33,362 bases of DNA from Bacillota bacterium (lineage in GTDB: Bacteria > Bacillota > Sulfobacillia > JAJZYS01 > JAJYTV01), in assembly GCA_021806845.1 (NCBI GenBank), contig JAKAPV010000001.1:1-33362 (forward strand), read 5' to 3'. The translations under genes were made by a program, and so were the position numbers. Shown one piece after another: positions 1-15,127 of the stretch. The notes beneath the pieces are model-generated. The model was not told the DNA's origin. It saw only the letters and a list, made by a program, of their open reading frames with translations, and ran no database searches. The number at the start of each line of letters is the position of its first letter. The first letter of the stretch is position 1.

Positions 1-599
1 GATCTGAGCCTCCCGAGACGGTCTGCTTCATCCAGTGCGTCGGCTCGCGCGACCGCCAGATCGGGAACAAGTACTGCTCCAAGGTCTGCTGCGGCATCGC
101 TTCCAAGCAGTCGATCGAGATCAAGCGCATGCTGCCGAACGCCAAGGTGTTCATCTTCTACATCGACATGCGCATGTACGGGTTCTGGGAGGACCAGATC
201 TACTGGAAGGCCCAGGAAGAGTACAAGGTCAACTACGTGCGCGGCATTGTGACGGAAGTCATCCGCAAGGGAGACAAGCTCCTCGTCAAGGGCGAGGACA
301 CGACGATGGGCCGGCCGATGGAAGTGCTGATGGATCTCGTGATCCTTTCGGTCGGCATGGAACCGTCGCGCGGGACGATCGACATGTCGCGCGTGTTTTC
401 GCTCCCGCGGGAGGAGCACGGATTCCTCGCCATCGTCGGAGGCCCCCTCGACACCGTATCGACCCCGGTGCAGGGCATCTATGTAGCCGGTGCGGCGGCG
501 GGGCCGAAGGACCTCGAGGACTCGATCTCGATGGGCGGAGCCGCGGCGATGAAGGCCGTCTCCCTGCTCGGTCGCATGCGGCGTATGGCCGCCCGGTGA
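1..599 (+). CDS. hdrA: Heterodisulfide-reductase-like subunit A (sHdrA), C-terminal part; the 5' end lies outside the window
   Basis: Frame 3 is open from base 3. The translation SEPPETVCFIQCVGSRDRQIGNKYCSKVCCGIASKQ... carries the HdrA-type CxGSRD / YCSxxCC cysteine motif, and later GIYVAGAAAGPKD. The TGA stop is at 597-599. Confidence 0.85.
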   Translation, partial: SEPPETVCFIQCVGSRDRQIGNKYCSKVCCGIASKQSIEIKRMLPNAKVFIFYIDMRMYGFWEDQIYWKAQEEYKVNYVRGIVTEVIRKGDKLLVKGEDTTMGRPMEVLMDLVILSVGMEPSRGTIDMSRVFSLPREEHGFLAIVGGPLDTVSTPVQGIYVAGAAAGPKDLEDSISMGGAAAMKAVSLLGRMRRMAAR

Positions 600-1315
600 G
601 CGTCCCGCTGATCGACGCGCAGGTACTCCAGGAGTTCCTCGACAAGGCCGAGCCGCTTCTTTCGGAGGCGGACCTGCGCGCGATCGGAGATTGCATGCAG
701 CGGCGCACCGGGGCCCTGCTCGCCGGCGATACGGACGTCGCGGAGGCGCTGCGGCAGGCCCCCGCGACGCGGCGGCTGCAGGCAAGGGATCTCGGCGGCT
801 GGGATGATCGGCTGCGGGAGATCTGGCCGCAGCTGCGGCAGGGGGATGCGGACGGAGCGCTTCTTCGGCTCTGCGAGCGGGAGGAGCCGCCGCCATGGAT
901 CGTCGATGCCGCGACCTTCTGGCTGCATGCCGCGAGTCCGGCGGAGAACCCCTGGTGGGCACGCTGGGTCCTCGAGCGAAGGCGCCGCACGGGCGCGATC
1001 CTGCTCCTGCTCGACGACCCCGGGGCCCTCGCCGAGGGCGGCACAGCTCAGGCATACGTTGACCTGCGGCAGGCGGTGCAGTTCCTGACGGAGATCCTCG
1101 CGGCGACGCGCAGGTTGCGGCCGGTCGCCCAGCCCTACCGGGCGACGGTGGCGCTCGCGGCGGTCTACGCGGTCTACATGTTCACGATGGCTTCCTGGAG
1201 GATGACGGACGAGTTCACCCAGGTGATGCCGCCCTTTCCAGGGGTGGTAGCGTCCCTGCTCGGGGTGGCCAGGCGGGAGGTGCGGTGCGTTGGAGGAGAA
1301 GGCGAAGGCGGTTGA
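596..1315 (+). CDS. Conserved hypothetical protein in the 'sHdrH' position between hdrA and the hdrCB-like gene
   Basis: GTG 596 overlaps the hdrA stop (GTGA). The part of ORF 35..1315 upstream of 596 is only the alternate frame of hdrA. I recognise no motif, so the call rests on position within the locus. Confidence 0.55.
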   Translation: MSVPLIDAQVLQEFLDKAEPLLSEADLRAIGDCMQRRTGALLAGDTDVAEALRQAPATRRLQARDLGGWDDRLREIWPQLRQGDADGALLRLCEREEPPPWIVDAATFWLHAASPAENPWWARWVLERRRRTGAILLLLDDPGALAEGGTAQAYVDLRQAVQFLTEILAATRRLRPVAQPYRATVALAAVYAVYMFTMASWRMTDEFTQVMPPFPGVVASLLGVARREVRCVGGEGEGG

Positions 1316-2573
1316 GCTCCCCTCGGTCACCATCGACGGGGTCACGCTCCCCGCACAGTGGAACCGGATGTTCGAGCCGCGCGTGATCAACCAGTACGAC
1401 ATATCGGTGCTGGAGGAGACGACCGCCATCCCCGGAGCGGAGTCGCTCGGCTACTGCTACCAGTGCGGCAAATGCACTGGCGTGTGCCCGATCGACACGG
1501 TCGGGGACTATTCGCCCCGCAAGATCTTCCGCAGGACCCAGATCGGCATTCCGCTGATCGACAGCCCGGACCTCTGGCTTTGCACGACCTGCCGCAACTG
1601 CCTGCGGGTCTGCCCGAAAGAGGTCAATATGATCGACATCATGCCGGCGGTGCGCGAACAGGCCGTCCTGGAGGGAAAGGCGCCGCAGGAGCTGCTGACC
1701 GCGTTCGAAAACACGGCGCGCTACGGCAACCCGCTCGGGGAGGCGCCGCGCAAGCGCGCCGACTGGACCAAGTCCGCCGGCGTCGAGGTCCGGATCATGT
1801 CCCAGCTGAAGGCGCCCGTCGACGTGCTCTGGTTCGTGGAGTGCTACCCCTCGTACCACCCGCGCGGCAAGGATGCCTCGGTCGCGCTCGCCCGCATCCT
1901 CGACAAACTCGGCATCGACTTCGGCATCCTCGGCGTGGAAGAGAAGTGCGCGGGGGACTCGCAGCGCATGGCCGGGGAGCGGGGGCTCTTCGAGATGCTG
2001 GCCGAGCAAAACATCAGCACGCTCTCCAAGTACGAGTTCGAAACGCTGATGGTCACCGATCCCCATGCCTACAACGCCTTCCTGCATGAGTACCCCAAGC
2101 TCGGCGGCAGCTACAAGACCGTCCACTACACGCAGCTCCTCGCCCCGCTCATCGATCAGATGGGCCTGTCGCAGGAAGTGCCCGCGCGCGTCACCTTCCA
2201 CGACCCCTGCTACCTCGGGCGGCACAACGGCGAGTACGAGGCGCCGCGGAGGCTCCTTGAGGCCATACCCGGCATCGACCTCGTGGAGATGGGTCGCTGC
2301 AAGGAGCGCTCCTACTGCTGCGGCGGCGGGGGCGGCGGCATGTGGCTCGACAGCTTCACCCGCGACCACACCAGTGCGCGCCTTTCGGAGATGCGGGTGC
2401 GCGAGGCGATCGAGTACGGGGCGGAGATCCTCGCCGTCGCGTGCCCGTACGAGGTGTCGCGCTTCGAGGATGCGGTCAAGTCGACGGGCAACGCCGGCCG
2501 GCTCAAGGTGATGGACATCTCCGAGCTGCTCGCGCTATCCATGGGGCTCATCCCGATGGAAGCGCTCGCCTGA
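1290..2573 (+). CDS. HdrC-HdrB fusion protein (sHdrB3-type): 2x[4Fe-4S] ferredoxin module plus two CCG domains
   Basis: CYQCGKCTGVCP and CTTCRNCLRVCP are ferredoxin motifs. FHDPCYLGRHNG and CCGGGGGG are CCG-domain motifs. A TTG start at 1290 lies 9 nt after GGGAGG and overlaps the previous gene by 26 nt. Confidence 0.8.
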   Translation: MEEKAKAVELPSVTIDGVTLPAQWNRMFEPRVINQYDISVLEETTAIPGAESLGYCYQCGKCTGVCPIDTVGDYSPRKIFRRTQIGIPLIDSPDLWLCTTCRNCLRVCPKEVNMIDIMPAVREQAVLEGKAPQELLTAFENTARYGNPLGEAPRKRADWTKSAGVEVRIMSQLKAPVDVLWFVECYPSYHPRGKDASVALARILDKLGIDFGILGVEEKCAGDSQRMAGERGLFEMLAEQNISTLSKYEFETLMVTDPHAYNAFLHEYPKLGGSYKTVHYTQLLAPLIDQMGLSQEVPARVTFHDPCYLGRHNGEYEAPRRLLEAIPGIDLVEMGRCKERSYCCGGGGGGMWLDSFTRDHTSARLSEMRVREAIEYGAEILAVACPYEVSRFEDAVKSTGNAGRLKVMDISELLALSMGLIPMEALA

Positions 2574-2588
2574 AAGGAGGACTTCCGC

Positions 2589-3347
2589 TTGCGCATCGCA
2601 GTCGTGATGAAACTGGTTCCCGACGTGGTGGAGGAACTCGTCCTCTCGGAGGACGGGAAGAGGCTCGAACGCGGCGACATCGCACTCAAGGCGAACGAGT
2701 TCGACGAGCAGGCCCTGGAACAGGCGCTTCTGCTCAAGGAGTCGTCCGGGGCGGAGCTGACCGTGATCGCCGCCGAGACGGGCGATGTCGACGAGATGCT
2801 CTATACCGCGCTCGCCAAGGGCGCGGACCGCGCCCTGAAGCTCGTGGGCGACGGTCTTCAGGACGGCATTTGGAACGCGCAGTATGCAGGCATTTTGGTC
2901 GACGTGATCGCGGACGTCGGCGCGGACGCGGTGCTGACCGGCGTCCAGGCGAACGACGACCTCGATGGGCAGCTTGCCACCTGGCTCGCGGCAGGTCTCG
3001 GCTGGTCCTTCGCGACGGTCGTCTCCGGGGTCGAGGCGGCGGGGGAGAGCCTCATCGCCAAGAAGGAGTTCGCGGGCGGACTGACGGCCAACTTGCGGCT
3101 GCCGCTGCCTGCGGTGCTGGGCATCCAGGCGTCCCCGGAGCCACCCCGCTACGCGCCCATCTCCCGGGTCCGCCAGATCATGAAGACCCAGTCGCTCGAG
3201 GAGCGAGAGGTGACGGCGCCGGCAGGGAGCATCACCGTTCTCTCGCTGCGGCCTCCCGAGAAGACGGGAGGCGCAGAGATGATCGAGGGAGACGTGCAGG
3301 CGAAGGCCGCGCGCATTGCGGAGGTCCTCGCGCAGCAAGGCATCTAG
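2589..3347 (+). CDS. etfB: Electron transfer flavoprotein beta subunit
   Basis: MRIAVVMKLVPDVVEEL... has the typical EtfB N-terminus and length (252 aa). A TTG start follows GAAAGGAGGA by about 8 nt. Confidence 0.85.
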   Translation: MRIAVVMKLVPDVVEELVLSEDGKRLERGDIALKANEFDEQALEQALLLKESSGAELTVIAAETGDVDEMLYTALAKGADRALKLVGDGLQDGIWNAQYAGILVDVIADVGADAVLTGVQANDDLDGQLATWLAAGLGWSFATVVSGVEAAGESLIAKKEFAGGLTANLRLPLPAVLGIQASPEPPRYAPISRVRQIMKTQSLEEREVTAPAGSITVLSLRPPEKTGGAEMIEGDVQAKAARIAEVLAQQGI

Positions 3348-3365
3348 GCTAAGGAGGTGGCACTG

Positions 3366-4307
3366 GTGAAGAAGGTACTCGCGTTCATCGATGTGGTGGA
3401 CGGCCAGCCGGGGGAGATCGGCTACGAACTCCTGGACTTCGCCCGGCAGGCGGCGCCGGAGGCGGAACTCGTGGCCGTCGGCGCAGGGCCGCAGGCCGCC
3501 CTCGAGGGACTTGCCGGCGCTGACCGGGCCCTCTGGACGGTCGCGGACGGCTACCGACCGGATCTCGTCGGCGAGGTGCTGACCGCCGCGATCGTCGCGG
3601 AGCAGCCGGACCTCGTGCTGGTTGGAAGCACTGCCGTGGGAATGGATGCCGGGACATATGCGGCGGCCAAGAGCGGCTACGCGAGCATCGCGTACGTGCG
3701 CTCGCTCGAGCCTCTGGACGGGAGCCTTGCAGCGCAGTCGGTGATCCTCGGCGGCAAGATGGTCGCGCGCGTCGCTGTGCCGGACCGAACGGTCCTGCAG
3801 GTCCTCGCCGGCGCGGGATCTGCGGAGCGCGGACGCGTCCCGGGTCGGCCGGCGCAGGTCGGGACCCTGGCGGAACCTGCGGCCAAGGCTTCGTTCGAAG
3901 GCTTCGGGCGGCCGGAGGCGCAGGACGTCGACATCACGCGCCACGATGTGCTCGTCAGCGTGGGCCGGGGCATCGGCGACGCGTCCAACATCGAACTCGC
4001 GGAGGAGCTCGCCGAGGCACTCGGCGGCGTGGTCTCCTCCTCGCGGCCGGTGGTCGACGCCGGCTGGCTGCCGAAGGCACGCCAGGTCGGCAAGTCGGGG
4101 AACAAGGTGAAGCCGAAGGTGTACCTCGCGCTCGGGATCAGCGGCGCGCCGGAGCACCTCGAGGGCATGCGCGACGCTGCCTGCATCATCGCCGTCAACA
4201 CGGACCCGGCTGCCCCGATCTTCGAGGTGGCGCACTACGGCGTCGTCGACGATGTACTCGACTTCATCCCGGCCCTCACGGAGTCGCTCCGGGTGCGCCA
4301 AGGATAG
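3366..4307 (+). CDS. etfA: Electron transfer flavoprotein alpha subunit
   Basis: The C-terminal FAD-binding signature SSRPVVDAGW...QVGKSGNKVKPKVYLALGISGAPEHLEGM is present. GTG 3366 lies 8 nt after AAGGAGG. The ORF-track start at 3357 overlaps the SD and is less likely. Confidence 0.85.
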   Translation: MKKVLAFIDVVDGQPGEIGYELLDFARQAAPEAELVAVGAGPQAALEGLAGADRALWTVADGYRPDLVGEVLTAAIVAEQPDLVLVGSTAVGMDAGTYAAAKSGYASIAYVRSLEPLDGSLAAQSVILGGKMVARVAVPDRTVLQVLAGAGSAERGRVPGRPAQVGTLAEPAAKASFEGFGRPEAQDVDITRHDVLVSVGRGIGDASNIELAEELAEALGGVVSSSRPVVDAGWLPKARQVGKSGNKVKPKVYLALGISGAPEHLEGMRDAACIIAVNTDPAAPIFEVAHYGVVDDVLDFIPALTESLRVRQG

Positions 4308-4319
4308 GAGGCCGTCCTC

Positions 4320-6449
4320 TTGCCGACAGGCACGGATCTGCCCGTCGCCCAGCGCGCTGTCTTCGAGGGATTCCAGCACAGCTGGCTCGTACCCCTCTTC
4401 TACGTGCTGGCGACGGTCGCGCTCATTATCTTCTTCTACGGGGTCTACCGCCGCGTCGGGCGCTACCGCGCAGGCAAGCGCGCGACGCTCGTGCGGGGCT
4501 GGCCACGCCGCATCGCCCGGTCCCTCATGGAGGTCCTGACCAGCCGGAGGATCGGGCGCCGCGACCGCTACACGGGCGTTGCGCACGCGTTCATCTTCTG
4601 GGCGTTCGGCTTCCTCTTCCTCGGAACCACGACCATCTTCCTCGACCACGACGTTCTTGGGCTCGTGGCTCCCTCGCTCGAGTTCTGGAAGGGAGCCTTC
4701 TTCCTCGGCTTCTCGGTCGTGATGGACGTGTCCGCTGCGCTCTTCATCATCGGACTTGTGATGATGGCGGTGCGCCGGGCCTTCTTCTCCACCTTCCGCC
4801 TGAGCTACCGCCGGGTCGACGGGAAGCAGCAGGACCGGTCCGCCTATGAACGCGAGGACTGGTGGTTTCTCGGCCAGCTGCTCTTGATCGGCGTCACCGG
4901 CCTGCTGCTCGAGGCGTTCCGGCTGATCCACGACCACCCGTGGTTCCAGGGCTACTCGCCGGTCGGCCTCGCGGTCGCAAAGGGGTTCGAGGCGCTCGGG
5001 ATGACGGCTCCCTCAGCCGGCGAGGCGCACTTTGTCACCTGGTGGGTGCACGCCTTCCTCGCGCTGACGTTCATCGCCTACATCCCGTACGCGAAGTCGG
5101 TGCACATGCTCGCGTCCTGGGCAAACGCCGCGGCGCGGGACGAGAAAGCGGCCGTCGTGCTGCCGACCCAGGAGACCGGAGCGCAGACGATCCCGCTGAC
5201 GCCCATCGCGGCAAACCTCACCTGGAAGCAGCTGCTCGCGGTGGACGCCTGCACGAAGTGCGGGCGCTGCCATGAGGTGTGCCCCGCGCGAACGTCGGGC
5301 GCGCCGCTCTCGCCGCGGGATCTCGTGCTCGACCTGCGCGAGTTCCTGGGCGGACGCCGCGGCACCGCCGCGGCCGCACAGGGGACGCTCTCCGCTGCCG
5401 CGACCGCCCTGCGCGACGACGGATCCCCTCTGATCTCCGCGGATGTGCTCTGGTCCTGCACCACCTGCCGGGCCTGCATCGAGGTCTGCCCGGTGGGGAT
5501 CGAGCATGTACCGCTGATCGTCGGCATGCGCCAGACACTGGTCGAGGAAGGCGAGATGGACCAGAACCTCGCGCAGGCCCTGATGAACCTCGGGCGCAAG
5601 GGCAACTCTTTCGGCCAGTCCGAGCGGGCGCGCGCCAAGTGGGCCGAACAGGCTGGCGTGCCGATCAAGGACGCGCGCACAGAGCACTGCGAGTACCTTT
5701 GGTTCGTCGGAGACTTCGCAAGCTACGACCCGCGCGCACAGCGCGTCAGCCAATCGGTCGCGCGCGTGCTGCACCATCTCGGCGTCGACTTCGGCATCCT
5801 CTTCGAAAGCGAGCGCAATGCGGGCAACGACGCGCGGCGCATCGGCGAGGAGGGGCTTTTCGAGTCGCTCGCGGAGAAGAATATGAAGGCGCTCTCGCAG
5901 GCGAGCTTCGACCGCATCTTCACGACGGACCCGCACAGCTACAACACCCTGAAGAACGAGTACCCCGCCTATGGCCTGGAGTGCGAGGTCCTGCACTACA
6001 CACAGCTGCTGCAGCGCCTGGCGGCGGAGGGCAAGATGCAGATCGTCGCGCCGCAGGACATCACCGTCACCTACCATGACCCCTGCTACCTCGGCAGGTA
6101 CAACCGGGTGTTCGATGCACCGCGGGAGCTCATTCGCCTGACGGGCGCGACGCTGCTCGAGATGCCGCGCAACCGCGAGGAGAGCTTCTGCTGCGGCGCC
6201 GGCGGCGGGCGCATCTTCACAGGCGACAGCCTGTACGGGGAGAAGCCGGCGGAAAGCCGCATCCGGGAGGCGGCAGGCCTGCACGGGATCGAGAGCTTCG
6301 TCGTGGCCTGCCCGAAGGACATGGCGATGTATACCGATGCGGCCAAGACGGCGGGTTACGAACAGCAGATCGCGGTCGAGGATGTCATCTTCCTGATCGA
6401 GCGCGCGCTTGGCATCGGAGCGAAGACACCGGAGGAGGTGAACGCATGA
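4320..6449 (+). CDS. Membrane-anchored HdrD/DsrK-like Fe-S oxidoreductase (putative Etf:quinone oxidoreductase, Emo/EtfD-like)
   Basis: The N-terminal ~270 aa are hydrophobic, with His in predicted helices (GVAHAFIFW, WWVHAFLAL, KSVHML). They are followed by CTKCGRCHEVCP and CTTCRACIEVCP ferredoxin motifs and two CCG domains (YHDPCYLGRYN, FCCGAGGG). A TTG start lies 8 nt after AGGAGG. Confidence 0.8.
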   Translation: MPTGTDLPVAQRAVFEGFQHSWLVPLFYVLATVALIIFFYGVYRRVGRYRAGKRATLVRGWPRRIARSLMEVLTSRRIGRRDRYTGVAHAFIFWAFGFLFLGTTTIFLDHDVLGLVAPSLEFWKGAFFLGFSVVMDVSAALFIIGLVMMAVRRAFFSTFRLSYRRVDGKQQDRSAYEREDWWFLGQLLLIGVTGLLLEAFRLIHDHPWFQGYSPVGLAVAKGFEALGMTAPSAGEAHFVTWWVHAFLALTFIAYIPYAKSVHMLASWANAAARDEKAAVVLPTQETGAQTIPLTPIAANLTWKQLLAVDACTKCGRCHEVCPARTSGAPLSPRDLVLDLREFLGGRRGTAAAAQGTLSAAATALRDDGSPLISADVLWSCTTCRACIEVCPVGIEHVPLIVGMRQTLVEEGEMDQNLAQALMNLGRKGNSFGQSERARAKWAEQAGVPIKDARTEHCEYLWFVGDFASYDPRAQRVSQSVARVLHHLGVDFGILFESERNAGNDARRIGEEGLFESLAEKNMKALSQASFDRIFTTDPHSYNTLKNEYPAYGLECEVLHYTQLLQRLAAEGKMQIVAPQDITVTYHDPCYLGRYNRVFDAPRELIRLTGATLLEMPRNREESFCCGAGGGRIFTGDSLYGEKPAESRIREAAGLHGIESFVVACPKDMAMYTDAAKTAGYEQQIAVEDVIFLIERALGIGAKTPEEVNA

Positions 6450-6877
6450 GTGAACGCTGCAAGCTCCCCGAGGAGCTCTATTACTGGCCGGAAAAGCATG
6501 TCTGGGCCCGGACCGAGCCGGACGGCAGCATCGTCGTCGGCATGACCGACGTCGCCCAGAACCTCGCCGGGAGGATCATCGTCGTGAGCCTCCGCTCGCT
6601 CGGCAAGACCCTCGCGCGCGGCAAGAGCGCGGGAACGCTCGAGAGCGGCAAATGGGTGGGGGCGATTCCGACGCCGGTCGCCGGCGAGGTGATCGCCGTG
6701 AACGACGGGTTGAAGGCGAACCCGTCGGTGATCAACGATGACCCGTACGGGGAGGGCTGGCTGATCCGCGTCGTGCCATCCGCGTGGGACGAGGATCGGC
6801 AGACCCTGGTCACGGGGCCGGACGGCGTGGCCGATTACCGCCGGCAGCTCGACGCCGCGGGCATCGCCTGCGCGTAG
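6446..6877 (+). CDS. lbpA: GcvH-like lipoate-binding protein (LbpA paralog 1)
   Basis: GcvH fold signatures are present (VVGMTDVAQ, DPYGEGWL) and the lipoyl-lysine context LESGKWVG is retained. The ATG overlaps the upstream stop (ATGA). Confidence 0.8.
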   Translation: MSERCKLPEELYYWPEKHVWARTEPDGSIVVGMTDVAQNLAGRIIVVSLRSLGKTLARGKSAGTLESGKWVGAIPTPVAGEVIAVNDGLKANPSVINDDPYGEGWLIRVVPSAWDEDRQTLVTGPDGVADYRRQLDAAGIACA

Positions 6878-6898: not shown

Positions 6899-7363
6899 GT
6901 GGCGTTCGTCTACGCCTGCGAGTTCCCGGATCACCTCTGGTTCGACGTGGCCCGGGACGTCTGGCTGGAGGAGCTCCCGGGGGGCGGCCTGCGTCTCGGA
7001 ATGACGGATCCCGCGGTGACGCGGGCGGGACGCATCGTCCACGTGCGCGTGCGCGCGGGCAGGCAGGCGGCGCCCGGCCAGGGCGTCGCCAGCGTGGAGT
7101 CGAGCAAGTGGGTGGGCCCCGTGCCAACCCCGCTGGAGGCCCGCGTCCTGCGGGGCAACCCGCTGCTCGCCTCGGACCCCGGACTCCTGAACCGGGACCC
7201 CTACGGCGAGGGCTGGCTCGCGGAGATCGAGCCGGTCGCTGCCGCGCCGGACCTGCGGGCGCTGGGCTTGAGGTACGGCACCGACGCGCTTGCGCCGTAT
7301 ACCGAGAAGCTCCGCCAGGAGGGGCTCAACTGCATCCGCTGCGCCGACGGCGCAGGCCAGTAG
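6899..7363 (+). CDS. lbpA: GcvH-like lipoate-binding protein (LbpA paralog 2)
   Basis: LGMTDPAVT, VESSKWVG (lipoyl-lysine context) and DPYGEGWL are present. A GTG start follows a G-rich SD. Confidence 0.8.
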   Translation: MAFVYACEFPDHLWFDVARDVWLEELPGGGLRLGMTDPAVTRAGRIVHVRVRAGRQAAPGQGVASVESSKWVGPVPTPLEARVLRGNPLLASDPGLLNRDPYGEGWLAEIEPVAAAPDLRALGLRYGTDALAPYTEKLRQEGLNCIRCADGAGQ

Positions 7364-7379
7364 GCAGGGGAGGAAAGGC

Positions 7380-8444
7380 ATGCGCTATCTCGACTTCGGC
7401 ACCGTCAGCGCCGAGCAGTCCCAGGCCGTCTACCATGCTGTCGCCGAAGAGCTCAGGCCCGGGGACCCCATCACCCTGATCACCGTGAGTCCTGACAGGC
7501 CCTACGTCTGCGTCGGCTACCACCAGGCGGCGAGCAGGGAGATCGACCGCGCCTACTGCGAGGAGCAGGGGGTGCCGGTCGGCCGGCGGATGGTCGGGGG
7601 CGGCGCCGTCTACCTCGATCATGACCAGATCTTCTGGCACCTCGTGATGCCTGGCGGGGCGCCCCCCGTCCAGGCCTTCTACGACCGCCTGCTCTCCGCG
7701 CCCGTCGGGGCGTACCGCGACATTGGCATCCAGGCGGAGCACCGGCCCGTGAACGACATCGTCGTCGGGCCGCGGAAGATCGGCGGCACCGGCGCCGCTT
7801 CGATCGGCCAGGCAAACGTGCTCGTCGGCAGCATCATGATGGACTTCGACACGAAGGCCATGGCCCGCGTCCTGCGCGTCCCTTCGGAGAAGTTCCGCGA
7901 TAAGCTCATCTCCTCGCTCGACGACTACATGACGACGATCCGCCGCGAGCTCGGAGACGGGGCGCCCACGCGCGAAACGGCGACGGCTCGTCTGGTCTCC
8001 CGCTTCTCAGAGGTGCTCGGCGAGCGGGTGGAAGCCTCGGCGCTCTCCCCCGGCGAGCGGGAACGGCTGGATCATTACGCGCAGATCCTCTTCGACCCGG
8101 AGTTCGTCTACCGCCAGGAGGGGTGGCTCCAGCCGGGCGTCAAGCTCAAAGACGGCGTGCGCCTGTACGAGGGCGTGCACAAGGCCCCCGGGGGACTCCT
8201 CCGCTTCATTTACCGCGACCGGGAGGGGGTGTTCGACGACGTTCTCCTGAGCGGGGATTTCTTCGTGGACCCGCCGGATGCGCTGCAGCGGATCGCACGC
8301 TCGCTGCTCGGACGTCCGGCCTCGGAAGAGGTCCTGCGCCTGCTGCTGGAAGAGGGACTCGCACACGCGGCGATGCCCGGGGTCGGGGAGGAGGACTTCC
8401 TGCAGGCGTTCCGCGCCGCGAAGGCGATCGAGGCGACGGTCTGA
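7380..8444 (+). CDS. Lipoate-protein ligase (LplA-like, single polypeptide with C-terminal accessory domain)
   Basis: MRYLDFGTVSAEQSQAVYHAVA..., RRMVGGGAVYLD and KIGGTGAASIG are LplA/LipB/BirA-fold signatures. ATG 7380 follows GGGGAGGAAAGG. It lies next to the two lbpA genes. Confidence 0.8.
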   Translation: MRYLDFGTVSAEQSQAVYHAVAEELRPGDPITLITVSPDRPYVCVGYHQAASREIDRAYCEEQGVPVGRRMVGGGAVYLDHDQIFWHLVMPGGAPPVQAFYDRLLSAPVGAYRDIGIQAEHRPVNDIVVGPRKIGGTGAASIGQANVLVGSIMMDFDTKAMARVLRVPSEKFRDKLISSLDDYMTTIRRELGDGAPTRETATARLVSRFSEVLGERVEASALSPGERERLDHYAQILFDPEFVYRQEGWLQPGVKLKDGVRLYEGVHKAPGGLLRFIYRDREGVFDDVLLSGDFFVDPPDALQRIARSLLGRPASEEVLRLLLEEGLAHAAMPGVGEEDFLQAFRAAKAIEATV

Positions 8445-8463: not shown

Positions 8464-8706
8464 GTGATGGAAACGGCGAAGGCAGCATTGACGATCGACG
8501 CGAAGGGGCTCGCGTGCCCGCTGCCGGTGATCCGGGCAAAGAAGGGGATCTCGTCGGTGGAGATCGGAGAGGTCATTGAAGTCGTGTCGACCGATCCCGG
8601 TTCCATGGCGGACTTCCAGGCCTGGGCCCGCTCCACGGGGCACGAACTCGTGAGTGCGCAGCAGGACGGCAGCGTGTACACCTACCTGATCCGACGCACC
8701 AAGTGA
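8464..8706 (+). CDS. tusA: TusA-family sulfurtransferase
   Basis: The 80-aa protein has the GLACPLPV (Cys-Pro-x-Pro) active-site motif. GAAGGAGG lies upstream. The start is GTG 8464 or ATG 8467. Confidence 0.85.
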   Translation: MMETAKAALTIDAKGLACPLPVIRAKKGISSVEIGEVIEVVSTDPGSMADFQAWARSTGHELVSAQQDGSVYTYLIRRTK

Positions 8707-8721: not shown

Positions 8722-9102
8722 ATGTCCGATGAGGCGAAGAAGTTTCTCTACATCCAGACAACCGGCGTCGAGGCTCCCGAGCGGTCTGCGTCGCCGTTCT
8801 TCCTGGCGACAACCGCCGCACTGATGGACCACGAGTCGACCATGGTGTTCACGATCACCGCGACGAGTCTGCTGAAAAAGGGCGCTGCGGACAACCTGCA
8901 CATCAAGTCGACCGGAGAGAGCCAGAATCTGCGCTTCTTCATCGACCAGGCCCGCGACGCGGGCGTTCGCTTCTTCGTCTGCGCCCCCAGCCTGGACCTC
9001 AACGACTGCACGGTCGACGACCTGATCGAGATCGATGGCGTGGTGGGCGGCACGGCACTGAACGAGATGGCGGCAGAGGCGGATGTCGTCATCACCTTCT
9101 GA
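8722..9102 (+). CDS. dsrE: DsrE/DsrF-family sulfur-carrier protein
   Basis: The 126-aa protein has the DsrE-like layout (FLYIQTTG...; conserved Cys in RFFVCAPSL). It lies directly after tusA. Confidence 0.75.
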   Translation: MSDEAKKFLYIQTTGVEAPERSASPFFLATTAALMDHESTMVFTITATSLLKKGAADNLHIKSTGESQNLRFFIDQARDAGVRFFVCAPSLDLNDCTVDDLIEIDGVVGGTALNEMAAEADVVITF

Positions 9103-12896: not shown

Positions 12897-12924
12897 GAAC
12901 TGCGTGAAAATATCTAGATGATTC

Positions 12925-12953
12925 TTGAAACATATGGAGATTTGATCTATGAT
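12925..12953 (+). promoter_or_regulatory. Candidate tnpA promoter predicting a leaderless mRNA
   Basis: TTGAAA (12925-30), a 17-nt spacer and TATGAT (12948-53) are followed by 6 nt and ATG 12960. No SD lies between them. Confidence 0.45.
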
Positions 12954-12959
12954 ATAAGC

Positions 12960-13604
12960 ATGCTGGTAAGTATCAAGGAAGCCGCCAGAGAACTGGGCGT
13001 ATGGCCGGAGACATTGCGTCGCTGGGAAGCCGAGGGGAAGATCGAGCCGCCGATGCGCACCCCCGGAGGGAGAAGGCGCTACGATCTCGCCAAGCTGCGC
13101 GGGCTTGCGCCGCACAAGGCGCCCTCGGCGCGCCAGACCCTGCTCTACGCGCGTGTCTCAAGCCACGACCAGAAGGAGGACCTCGTGCGCCAGGTGGCGC
13201 TGCTCGAGTCCTTCAGCGCTGCGAACGGCTGGACCTACGAAGTGCTGCAGGACCTGGGTTCCGGCCTCAACTACCACAAGAAGGGCCTTCGCCTCTTGAT
13301 CAAGCGCATCTGCAGCGGCGAAGTCGGGCGCTTGGTGATTACGCACAAGGACCGCCTGCTGCGCCTGGGCTCCGAACTCGTCTTCTCGCTCTGCGAACAG
13401 TTCGGAACGGAGGTCGTGATCGTCAACGCCTCGGAAGAAGCGAGTTTTGAAGAAGAACTCCTGGAGGACGTCCTGGAGATGATCACCGTGTTCTCCGCAC
13501 GACTTTATGGCAGCCGCAGCCACAAGAACAAGCAGCTACTCGACGCCCTGAAGGCGGCGGCAAACGTGGTGGCAGGTGGGCCTCCACTGGAGGCTCACCC
13601 GTGA
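12960..13604 (+). CDS. tnpA: IS607-family transposase TnpA (MerR-like HTH plus serine recombinase)
   Basis: MLVSIKEAARELGVWPETLRRWEAEGKI is the HTH. LLYARVSSHDQKEDL holds the catalytic-Ser motif. VITHKDRLLRLG is the resolvase core. In-frame ATG 12960 is preferred over the ORF-track start at 12918. Confidence 0.9.
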   Translation: MLVSIKEAARELGVWPETLRRWEAEGKIEPPMRTPGGRRRYDLAKLRGLAPHKAPSARQTLLYARVSSHDQKEDLVRQVALLESFSAANGWTYEVLQDLGSGLNYHKKGLRLLIKRICSGEVGRLVITHKDRLLRLGSELVFSLCEQFGTEVVIVNASEEASFEEELLEDVLEMITVFSARLYGSRSHKNKQLLDALKAAANVVAGGPPLEAHP

Positions 13605-15127
13605 AGCGAACAGCGAAGTATGCGACCCTTCCCCTCAACCGGGGCAAGCGCAACATGCTGCGCTCTCTGATTGACGCCTTCGCGAACCTGAAGGACCTGG
13701 CGCTGCGCACGCTCTCAAGAACCAGGCAGTGGCACTATCTCGACGGTCGCTGGCAGGTCTTGCGCGACGTGATGAAGCCGCGTTACGCAAAAGGTGTGCC
13801 CGTCCACCTGCAGGACCAGGCCATCAAGGACGCCGTTCTCACCATGCGTCGCTGGATCGAGTCGGTCATCGCACTCACCCATCTGAAGAAGCGGATCTTC
13901 GTACGCTTCGAGAAGCAGCAGCGGCACTACGCATTCTGGCTCCTGCGCAGATACGGGCGGATCGGCGCCGTGCTGCGGGGCGAGGCGCCCGTGCCCAAGT
14001 TCGAGATTGCGGCGAGGGAGCGCAAGGAGGTCGTGCGCTTCCTGCACCGGATCCTGCGGCACGCACTGGGCAGGGCGCCGCGCATGAATGTGCGTCGGAG
14101 CGTGGCGCTCGACACCTCGCTCTATAGGGTGTTCGAGCACAGAGGGCGCGTGTATGTGGCCATCGCGTCTTCCGTTCGTGGCGAACGCCTTGTGCTGCCG
14201 CTGCGCGGCCAGGGGCGAATCTCGGGAGACATCCGCGTGGTGTTCGACATGGGCCGCAGGACCGGGTTCGTGCATATGGCCTACAACGTGCGGGTGCCCG
14301 TCCAGCCTGCGACCGGCGCAGCGGTCGGCCTCGACGCCGGCGTGACGGAGGTGCTGGCTGCGTCGAGCGGAGAGAAGTACGGCCACGGCTACGGCGTCCT
14401 GCTCGATCGGCTGTCGCAGGAGACGACGGAGACCGGCAAGGCGCGCAACAAGCTCTCCCAGATCGCGAACAGGGCCGAGGAGAGGGGGCGCAAAGCGCGG
14501 GCTGCCGGTGGCAGCCCAGGAGATGCGAAGAAAGCCTCGCGCATCCGGCGCCAGAACCTTGGCAGCAGGAAGCTCAACGTGAAGCGCGCACGCGGCGAGG
14601 CGGCGGTGAAGACGATGGTGGGTCAGGCGGTGCGCGCGGCGCTCAAGGACCGTCCGTCCGTGGTGGCCGTCGAGGACCTTTCTCACTTGCGGGGACGCAC
14701 CAAGAGCAGAAGGCTCTCGCGCGTCGTTTCGCGCTGGGCGCGCTCAGTATTGCGCGAGAGGCTAGAGTTCCGTGCCGAGGCGGGACGTTCCCGCCTGGAA
14801 ACGGTCAACGCCGCGTACACAAGCCAGGCCTGCCCCAATCCGGCGTGCGGCTTCGTCCACAAAGACAACCGACACGGGGACAGGTTTCACTGCCTGCACT
14901 GCGGGTGGGATGGTGACGCGGACGTTGTCGCCGGAATGAACCTCCTCGCCAGGGTGGCCGATCCCGAGATTCATCTTTGGACACCCAAGGAGCGGGTGAA
15001 GGCCATCCTGGAAGCGAGGTTCCGTCGCCGGAAGGAGACCGGGAACCTGGTTCGCCCTGTGGACCAGGGAAACGGCACACCGCTCCCGGCCGGGCTCCAG
15101 AGCAGCCATGCGGGTACAGCTGTCTGA
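13601..15127 (+). CDS. tnpB: TnpB (IS605 OrfB-family RuvC nuclease, RNA-guided OMEGA-type), 508 aa
   Basis: RuvC-I is VGLDAGVTE, RuvC-II is VVAVEDLSH, the zinc ribbon is CPNPACG...HCLHCG, and RuvC-III is GDADVVAGMNL. The GTG start overlaps the tnpA stop (GTGA). Confidence 0.9.
   Translation: MKRTAKYATLPLNRGKRNMLRSLIDAFANLKDLALRTLSRTRQWHYLDGRWQVLRDVMKPRYAKGVPVHLQDQAIKDAVLTMRRWIESVIALTHLKKRIFVRFEKQQRHYAFWLLRRYGRIGAVLRGEAPVPKFEIAARERKEVVRFLHRILRHALGRAPRMNVRRSVALDTSLYRVFEHRGRVYVAIASSVRGERLVLPLRGQGRISGDIRVVFDMGRRTGFVHMAYNVRVPVQPATGAAVGLDAGVTEVLAASSGEKYGHGYGVLLDRLSQETTETGKARNKLSQIANRAEERGRKARAAGGSPGDAKKASRIRRQNLGSRKLNVKRARGEAAVKTMVGQAVRAALKDRPSVVAVEDLSHLRGRTKSRRLSRVVSRWARSVLRERLEFRAEAGRSRLETVNAAYTSQACPNPACGFVHKDNRHGDRFHCLHCGWDGDADVVAGMNLLARVADPEIHLWTPKERVKAILEARFRRRKETGNLVRPVDQGNGTPLPAGLQSSHAGTAV

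Follow-up and report, generated by a model that had tools for sequence, protein, structure and literature searches.

The sulfur-oxidation locus at the beginning of a 33,362-nucleotide (nt) stretch of DNA from a Bacillota bacterium (contig JAKAPV010000001.1 of GenBank assembly GCA_021806845.1; the whole stretch is called the window here) raises the question by which route electrons leave the cytoplasmic sHdr system, an exit which sets the energy gain of these organisms. An earlier, sequence-based reading of this DNA (the original prediction) placed etfB, etfA and a two-part membrane protein behind the sHdr core and proposed electron flow from sHdr via Etf and a membrane oxidoreductase to menaquinone. 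The open reading frames and their Pfam domains agree with this layout and its coordinates (Table 1), and with a probability of roughly three in four we regard the three genes as the module through which electrons leave a type II sHdr sulfur-oxidation locus, with a dedicated, non-bifurcating EtfBA. The sequence evidence favours a simple one-electron shuttle to menaquinone over a bifurcating device, in which case neither low-potential ferredoxin nor NADH would be made at the Etf step. The system is already in the literature: PMC11094781, with reference to Kuempel et al. 2024, proposes the same route for type II shdr clusters, whose Etf genes and long hdrC-like gene with transmembrane (TM) segments were noted in 2014 (PMC4378227). 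Added here are the sequence-level description of the Etf subfamily, its non-bifurcating reading and the ligand pattern of the membrane protein, ETF:(methyl)menaquinone oxidoreductase (EMO).

Type II shdr clusters are defined by shdrC1B1AHB3 and etfAB in one syntenic cluster (PMC11094781). In the window the 3' half of shdrA, shdrH, shdrB3, etfB, etfA and emo are contiguous, and lbpA, lipoate ligase, tusA and dsrE genes accompany them as in type II sHdr loci. The order from H and B3 via etfB, etfA, emo, lbpA, lbpA, slpl and tusA to dsrE is that of the cluster known from Sulfobacillus, Thermomicrobium and others (PMC4378227, PMC11094781), for which the present genome is a new carrier. The full cluster of Kyrpidia spormannii reads shdrC1-B1-A-H-B3-etfB-etfA-emo-lbpA-lbpA-slpl-tusA-dsrE, and the same core order was found in one close metagenomic contig, in metagenome-assembled genomes (MAGs) labelled Bacteroidetes, Ktedonobacteraceae and Deltaproteobacteria, and in about 20 Chloroflexota loci. 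A haloarchaeal MAG carries a rearranged version: shdrC1B1A and B3 are neighbours of emo in opposite orientation, and of etfA no more than a fragment was detected. The loci number more than 25, belong to several phyla and, where they came from the contig scan, mainly to Chloroflexota; in most of them etfBA-emo takes the identical position between shdrB3 and lbpA. The link of etfBA-emo to sHdr is conserved, not incidental. Moreover, the genes of a homologous 19-gene cluster of Thermomicrobium roseum, among them hdrABC, etfAB and tusA, are induced together, by an average of 45-fold (PMC6776052). As for the acceptor, menA was detected in the genome with a score above the cut-off, and MqnA was not found there. 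Together with the published proposal, the synteny and menA support the predicted route to menaquinone.

We propose that sHdr would oxidise protein-bound sulfane sulfur in the cytoplasm and that its electrons would pass, with sHdrB3 as the likely donor, to the single FAD of the dedicated EtfBA. EtfB would then dock on the HdrD-like cytoplasmic domain of EMO, where the FAD domain of Etf could swing within electron-transfer distance of the remaining non-cubane cluster (predicted ligands C589, C624, C625, C664, H539 and D667). From EMO's non-cubane site the electrons would reach the proximal haem b (H89/H262) by way of two cubane [4Fe-4S] clusters, the distal haem site (H244, E198) may come next, and menaquinone would be reduced in the membrane. 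What we infer in this scheme is where the electrons come from, which way they flow, how many haems EMO contains, which quinone site serves and whether AMP is still bound by EtfB.

The 709-residue membrane protein is assigned, by sequence and by model, to the EMO/EtfD family. Its best solved relative is EtfD of M. smegmatis (MsEtfD or MsEMO, PDB 9OJN; E 4.9e-71 by sequence), and an AlphaFold2 model built from 89 sequences (pLDDT 89, pTM 0.87) was matched by Foldseek to 9OJN over its full length (E 1.1e-35, TM-score 0.81 for the query and 0.78 for the target), followed by HdrB, NarI and hydrogenase-1 cytochrome b. Because of these E values and the TM-score the match lies far beyond chance, and it bears out the anticipated resemblance to Etf's membrane partner in the fatty-acid oxidation of actinobacteria. 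Common to the window protein and the EtfD proteins of M. smegmatis and M. tuberculosis (PMC13083937) are a single chain combining five TM helices, two cubane motifs and two CCG domains, the proximal histidine pair, the histidine ligand of the non-cubane cluster and a phenylalanine pair at the menaquinone pocket; however, identity to MsEtfD is 28% and the disordered C-terminal tail of about 30 kDa of the latter is absent. The EMO of Syntrophus aciditrophicus (SaEMO; preprint 10.64898/2026.08.18.745454; PMC8805022) is similar in length (706 as compared to 709 residues), likewise has five TM helices and receives its partner Etf on the cytoplasmic domain, but its donor is an acyl-CoA dehydrogenase acting via a canonical AMP-type Etf.

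Hydropathy reveals five hydrophobic segments in the N-terminal ~260 residues, modelled as helices 23-51, 83-116, 125-155, 174-205 and 230-257, whose basic loops face the cytoplasm, an arrangement also present in SaEMO and MsEtfD (preprint 10.64898/2026.08.18.745454; PMC13083937). The three histidine motifs quoted in the original prediction, AHAFIFW (H89), WWVHAF (H244) and KSVHML (H262), are all present. H89, H244 and H262 are invariant in all 89 aligned sequences, i.e., the window EMO and 88 homologues of 48-77% identity, they align with histidines of MsEtfD, and wherever a sequence from an sHdr-linked locus extends over H89 and H262, both are present. By this comparison the proximal-haem ligands H78/H241 of MsEtfD and H87/H251 of SaEMO have their counterparts in H89 and H262, and H244 on TM helix V pairs with the distal-haem ligand H233 of SaEMO and with H223 of MsEMO, the SaEMO residues being matched by numbering offset. 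The arginines of the haem propionates (R152/153, R165, R316) are kept, as is the phenylalanine pair near the proximal haem (F96, F251), which in MsEtfD lies at the menaquinone pocket (PMC13083937). The predicted pattern is that of EMO, a bis-histidine proximal haem and a single-histidine distal site. Of the proposed NarI/DsrM-like di-haem ligation, the conserved helix-embedded histidines stand, but the arrangement is the three-histidine EMO type; a NarI-type four-histidine reading was rejected, as TM helix II holds one conserved histidine and, ten residues on, Leu99.

Conservation of the histidines, complete in the 88 close homologues, does not extend to the Chloroflexota branch, where the distal-haem histidine is replaced by alanine in 20 of the 29 sHdr-linked loci, these 20 being from this phylum. 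The Chloroflexota proteins (loci L004-L025; Thermomicrobia, Anaerolineae, Chloroflexaceae) have alanine at the position of H244, glutamine at that of E198 and a histidine six residues upstream (238), and their TM helix II loop is five residues shorter. The branch of the window EMO retains H244 and E198. Judging from these replacements, the two branches may differ in how much haem their EMOs contain and, with it, in how they couple to the membrane potential.

The retained distal site also bears on the direction of flow. The module could run in reverse, with menaquinol reducing EMO, aided by the membrane potential via the distal haem/quinone site, and Etf feeding sHdr or LbpA, for instance by re-reducing a disulfide or lipoamide. 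EMO and ETF are reversible in S. aciditrophicus during enoyl-CoA respiration (preprint 10.64898/2026.08.18.745454, PMC8805022), and the window EMO keeps both the distal-haem ligand H244 and E198 at the position of the SaEMO twin-haem Ca ligand E187, the latter match, like that of T103 with A101, being made by numbering offset only and not by alignment; in MsEMO the counterpart of E198 is arginine or alanine, depending on the alignment. Nevertheless, we consider reverse flow unlikely, since the bearers of type II clusters are sulfur oxidisers according to PMC11094781, sulfane-sulfur oxidation yields electrons that need an exit, and the locus encodes no acceptor reaction of low potential.

Forward flow through EtfBA and EMO, the reading which we prefer, would proceed over a reduced set of iron-sulfur sites. 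All eight cysteines of the two cubane motifs (CxxCxxCxxxCP twice; C311/314/317/321 and C380/383/386/390) are invariant, and in the CCG domains only four cysteines are left, C589, C624, C625 and C664. In MsEtfD the proximal non-cubane [4Fe-4S] cluster is held by Cys637/672/673/709/712 and His583, and the distal cluster, or D1, is a linear [3Fe-4S] cluster (PMC13083937); the distal cluster of SaEMO is a [4Fe-5S] cluster (preprint 10.64898/2026.08.18.745454). At the positions of the four distal-cluster cysteines of MsEtfD (Cys503/538/581/584), the window EMO has D465, N500 (N500/A501), D537 and S540, so that unlike both solved proteins its distal site is without cysteine. The proximal site, D2, keeps C589, C624, C625 and C664 as well as H539 at the position of H583, whereas its fifth cysteine ligand, Cys712, is replaced by D667. 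This ligand pattern, including D667, was found in 118 of 119 homologues compared, and by sequence the window EMO is of a type which lacks the distal cluster and has aspartate in the proximal site. The loss of the distal-cluster cysteines in itself was discarded as a novelty, as it is already described for B. subtilis FadF and P. aeruginosa DgcB, which resemble the window EMO by this description and act in fatty-acid and dimethylglycine catabolism; it was read there as direct transfer from the ETF flavin to the proximal cluster (PMC13083937). In the SaEMO:ETF structure, the flavin lies 12-13 A from both clusters (preprint 10.64898/2026.08.18.745454).

Whether the Etf carries a second FAD was left open in the original prediction. 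The R. palustris ETF variant T94,97A takes AMP instead of the bifurcating FAD at EtfB Thr94/Thr97 (PMC8958531), Gly123 of EtfB is invariant in bifurcating ETFs and a bulkier residue in canonical ones (PMC12630350), and the zipper motif is DGDTAQ in bifurcating ETFs and DDDxNQ in those of group 1 (PMC8958531), its threonine being conserved in 100% of 216 bifurcating ETFs (PMC8958531, PMC12630350). With the numbering checked on 4KPU_B (GADTLATS and DGDT), none of these marks was found in the window EtfB, which has Asn/Tyr for the two threonines, Asp for Gly123 and DDLDGQ as zipper. The marks are likewise absent from all 28 sHdr-linked EtfBs, which share VQAxDDLDGQ, and present in all five bifurcating PDB references. 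The best PDB matches of EtfB are AMP-type ETFs (1O94_C with 9e-27, 1EFP_B and 1EFV_B), which precede the bifurcating ones, and in a tree with eight references, five bifurcating and three canonical, the sHdr-linked EtfBs group as a single clade (SH-aLRT 99), distinct from both kinds and from the housekeeping EtfB of the genome. Because the marks are absent, the clade is separate and the PDB matches are of the AMP type, a two-FAD Etf is unlikely and the sHdr-linked Etf is, by these residues, very probably non-bifurcating.

A bifurcating or confurcating two-FAD enzyme would couple sHdr to NAD(H) or ferredoxin plus menaquinone, much like FixABCX or EtfABCX. The sHdrA homologues in methanogens are bifurcating flavoproteins, which would suit such a role. 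Furthermore, among PDB entries EtfA finds its single best match in CarE (6FAH_A, 4e-40), which belongs to a bifurcating complex. Against this stand the lack of the second-FAD determinants in every sHdr-linked EtfB, the position of their clade apart from all five bifurcating references and the missing arginine that hydrogen-bonds to N5 of the bifurcating flavin, and in view of these we hold a two-FAD enzyme to be very improbable.

A non-bifurcating EtfBA is not simply a canonical one, as seen from EtfA. Its motifs SSSRPVVDAG, QVGKSG and GISGAPEH retain the arginine over the flavin, the serine at N5 and the histidine at O2, with altered neighbours; sHdr-linked EtfAs have QVGKSG and GISGAPEH(L/V)EGM as compared to QVGQTG and GISGAxQHxAGM in canonical ones. 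The inter-domain arginine (A. fermentans R146, R. palustris R165), which occurs in 447 of 449 canonical ETFs and is required for nucleotide binding, is serine in the window and serine or alanine in 29 of 29 sHdr-linked EtfAs, the region TRPAFGGN being changed to TSQIYGGK, or AQSVILGGK in the window. A library of 1.84 billion proteins was surveyed through its 150 top-ranking cluster representatives; the three EtfA signatures co-occur there, and from about rank 30 they are jointly replaced by arginine and QH. The solved group 1 and group 2 ETFs (1EFV, 1EFP, 1O94; 4KPU, 5OL2, 6FAH, 7QH2, 7KOE) share with the window Etf the two-subunit fold and the flavin-site arginine, serine/threonine and histidine, but the window Etf differs from them in its separate clade, its DDLDGQ zipper, the missing inter-domain arginine and GISGAPEH/QVGKSG in place of GISGAxQH/QVGQTG. 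By these sequence features the sHdr-linked Etf belongs to a distinct subfamily. This subfamily and the cluster-depleted EMO type are recognisable and can be used for annotating such loci and for choosing proteins for biochemistry.

On the donor side, sHdrB3 is related to EMO. sHdrB3 and the cytoplasmic half of EMO (5250-6440) are paralogues of about 37-42% identity, with 42% to EMO residues 367-699. The ligand pattern of sHdrB3 is C, C-A, D-x-H-A in the first part and C, CC, C, E in the second; it shares the D/H pair with EMO, the first CCG motif is degenerate in either protein, and in both an acidic residue (E or D) takes the place of the last cysteine of the second CCG motif (position 667). 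A tree rooted on sHdrB1 groups sHdrB3 with the EMO domains but does not resolve the order among sHdrB3, sHdr-linked EMO and fatty-acid-type EMO. Because of this likeness to the EMO cytoplasmic domain, sHdrB3 is a plausible candidate for the docking site of Etf on the donor side. Extending this, one may tentatively suppose that the sHdr-linked Etf represents a third cofactor class, with no bifurcating FAD and, given the loss of the near-universal inter-domain arginine, with AMP absent or bound differently, which would have co-evolved with an HdrD-like docking module with one non-cubane cluster. This module would occur twice, in the soluble donor sHdrB3 and the membrane-bound acceptor EMO, with the same EtfB surface and swinging FAD domain serving both, and menaquinone reduction by the window-branch EMO (H244, E198) would be sensitive to the membrane potential through features lost in Chloroflexota. 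As a whole we regard this extension as possible but doubtful.

Several points weigh against the interpretation of the locus as a dedicated, non-bifurcating sulfur-electron exit. No experimental test of a type II sHdr Etf or EMO was found in the literature, and donor, direction and acceptor are all deduced. The locus as seen is incomplete, differing from the known type II cluster in that the window starts inside shdrA, and shdrC1, shdrB1 and the 5' half of shdrA were found nowhere in the assembly, which we attribute to the contig break. The Etf also departs from the canonical AMP type (inter-domain arginine replaced by Ser/Ala, zipper not DDDxNQ), and a content of one FAD plus AMP, as far as these residues tell, is not secure. 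Finally, locus L043 (7243-10950) carries an etfB-etfA-emo trio with the same signatures in Etf (GVSGAPEH, QVGKSG, no arginine) and EMO (D465/D537/D667), divergent from two GMC-oxidoreductase gene pairs and without shdr genes. By this comparison the etfBA-emo module is not sulfur-specific in itself, and the Etf and EMO signatures were dropped as sulfur-specific marks. Since the trio occurs without shdr, the three-gene unit looks like a portable quinone-reducing exit which was recruited by type II sHdr.

In the genome under study, a second, ordinary Etf adjoins an acyl-CoA dehydrogenase (contig C324), and the grouping of the sHdr-linked Etf apart from this housekeeping Etf agrees with what a sulfur-dedicated Etf was expected to show. 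A second EMO/EtfD fragment, cut by the contig end (G000:C88:4881-5609, minus strand; locus L032), adjoins acyl-CoA synthetase and thiolase genes, has the full MsEtfD-type cysteine pattern (GC, GCTG, CPHC, C, CCG, CPFC) and is probably the organism's fatty-acid EMO. Because the second Etf and EMO lie in fatty-acid contexts, the sHdr-linked proteins appear as a dedicated paralogous set. EMO/EtfD, FadF and DgcB are known to serve beta-oxidation or dimethylglycine catabolism (PMC13083937) and the L043 trio adjoins GMC oxidoreductases, which would fit a general catabolic role of EtfBA-EMO, in fatty-acid breakdown or with other dehydrogenases, its place beside the shdr genes being incidental. We consider this view extremely improbable given the position between shdrB3 and lbpA, identical in most loci across phyla, the overlap of emo with lbpA and the separate paralogues.

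The genes of the locus are closely spaced. Spacings from shdrB3 to lbpA1 range from the emo/lbpA1 overlap of 4 nt up to 15 nt, the GTG start of the shdrH-like gene and the shdrA stop share the letters GTGA, and a scan of the window detected no terminator-like site between positions 1 and 8100. AAGGAGG lies 8 nt upstream of etfB and AGGAGG precedes emo, as Shine-Dalgarno sequences for the two TTG starts. The real start of slpl is probably downstream of 7290, and a GAF protein gene follows dsrE on the plus strand.

Table 1. Genes and sites of the sulfur locus in the window
Feature	Position	Strand	Remarks
shdrA, 3' part	3..599	+	Contig starts inside gene; 92% identity to residues 159-346 of Kyrpidia spormannii sHdrA; weak Pyr_redox_2 match
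shdrH-like gene	596..1315	+	No Pfam family; 38% identity to 245-aa gene between shdrA and shdrB3 of Kyrpidia
shdrB3, soluble HdrC/HdrB fusion	1290..2573	+	Pfam Fer4_8 and CCG; two cubane-cluster motifs, two CCG domains; 78% identity to Kyrpidia sHdrB3
etfB, 252 aa, sHdr-linked subfamily	2589..3347	+	TTG start; Pfam ETF 5e-23; without bifurcating-FAD signature
etfA, 316 aa, FAD-binding subunit	3357..4307	+	Pfam ETF_alpha 3e-32 and ETF; without N-terminal ferredoxin domain
EtfA flavin site	3357..4307	+	Flavin-site Arg and His retained; motifs GISGAPEHLEGM and QVGKSG
emo, 709 aa, ETF:(methyl)menaquinone oxidoreductase / EtfD-FadF-type membrane Fe-S haem protein	4320..6449	+	TTG start; 4Fe-4S dicluster domain and two CCG domains
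lbpA1, GcvH-like lipoate-binding protein	6446..6877	+	Pfam GCV_H 3.5e-34; 69% identity to Kyrpidia LbpA; start overlaps emo stop by 4 nt
lbpA2, second GcvH-like protein	6899..7363	+	Pfam GCV_H 5e-21
slpl, lipoate-protein ligase	7290..8444	+	Pfam LplA-B_cat 7.5e-34; position same in Kyrpidia and MAG loci
tusA	8464..8706	+	63% identity to Kyrpidia TusA
dsrE-type sulfur transferase	8722..9102	+	Pfam DsrE 3e-15; 72% identity to Kyrpidia protein

Identity to Kyrpidia spormannii is very uneven across the operon, namely 92% for sHdrA, 78% for sHdrB3, 72% for DsrE, 69% for LbpA, 65% for EMO, 62% for EtfB, 58% for EtfA and 38% for sHdrH. Among 30 related genomes, from the same genus to the same class, there was no EMO closer than 41% identity and no sHdrB3-like match. 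The window is contig C32 of an assembly of 2.9 Mb (362 contigs, 67% GC); it is the contig nearest to the tetranucleotide mean of the genome and its shdr part is typical, and composition gives no support to mis-binning or recent transfer, which were rejected as explanations. Such absence from the sampled relatives despite native composition points to acquisition long ago or to repeated loss. An IS607-type pair (12918-15127) follows the sulfur locus at a distance of about 3 kb on its downstream side, consisting of a serine recombinase with MerR-HTH and a TnpB with Cas12f-like TNB domain, in a stretch of lower GC (64%) and atypical composition. Elsewhere in the genome, contig C204 holds two HdrA-like frames with 29-34% identity to sHdrA and a second tusA-like gene, which may belong to a different Hdr-like system.

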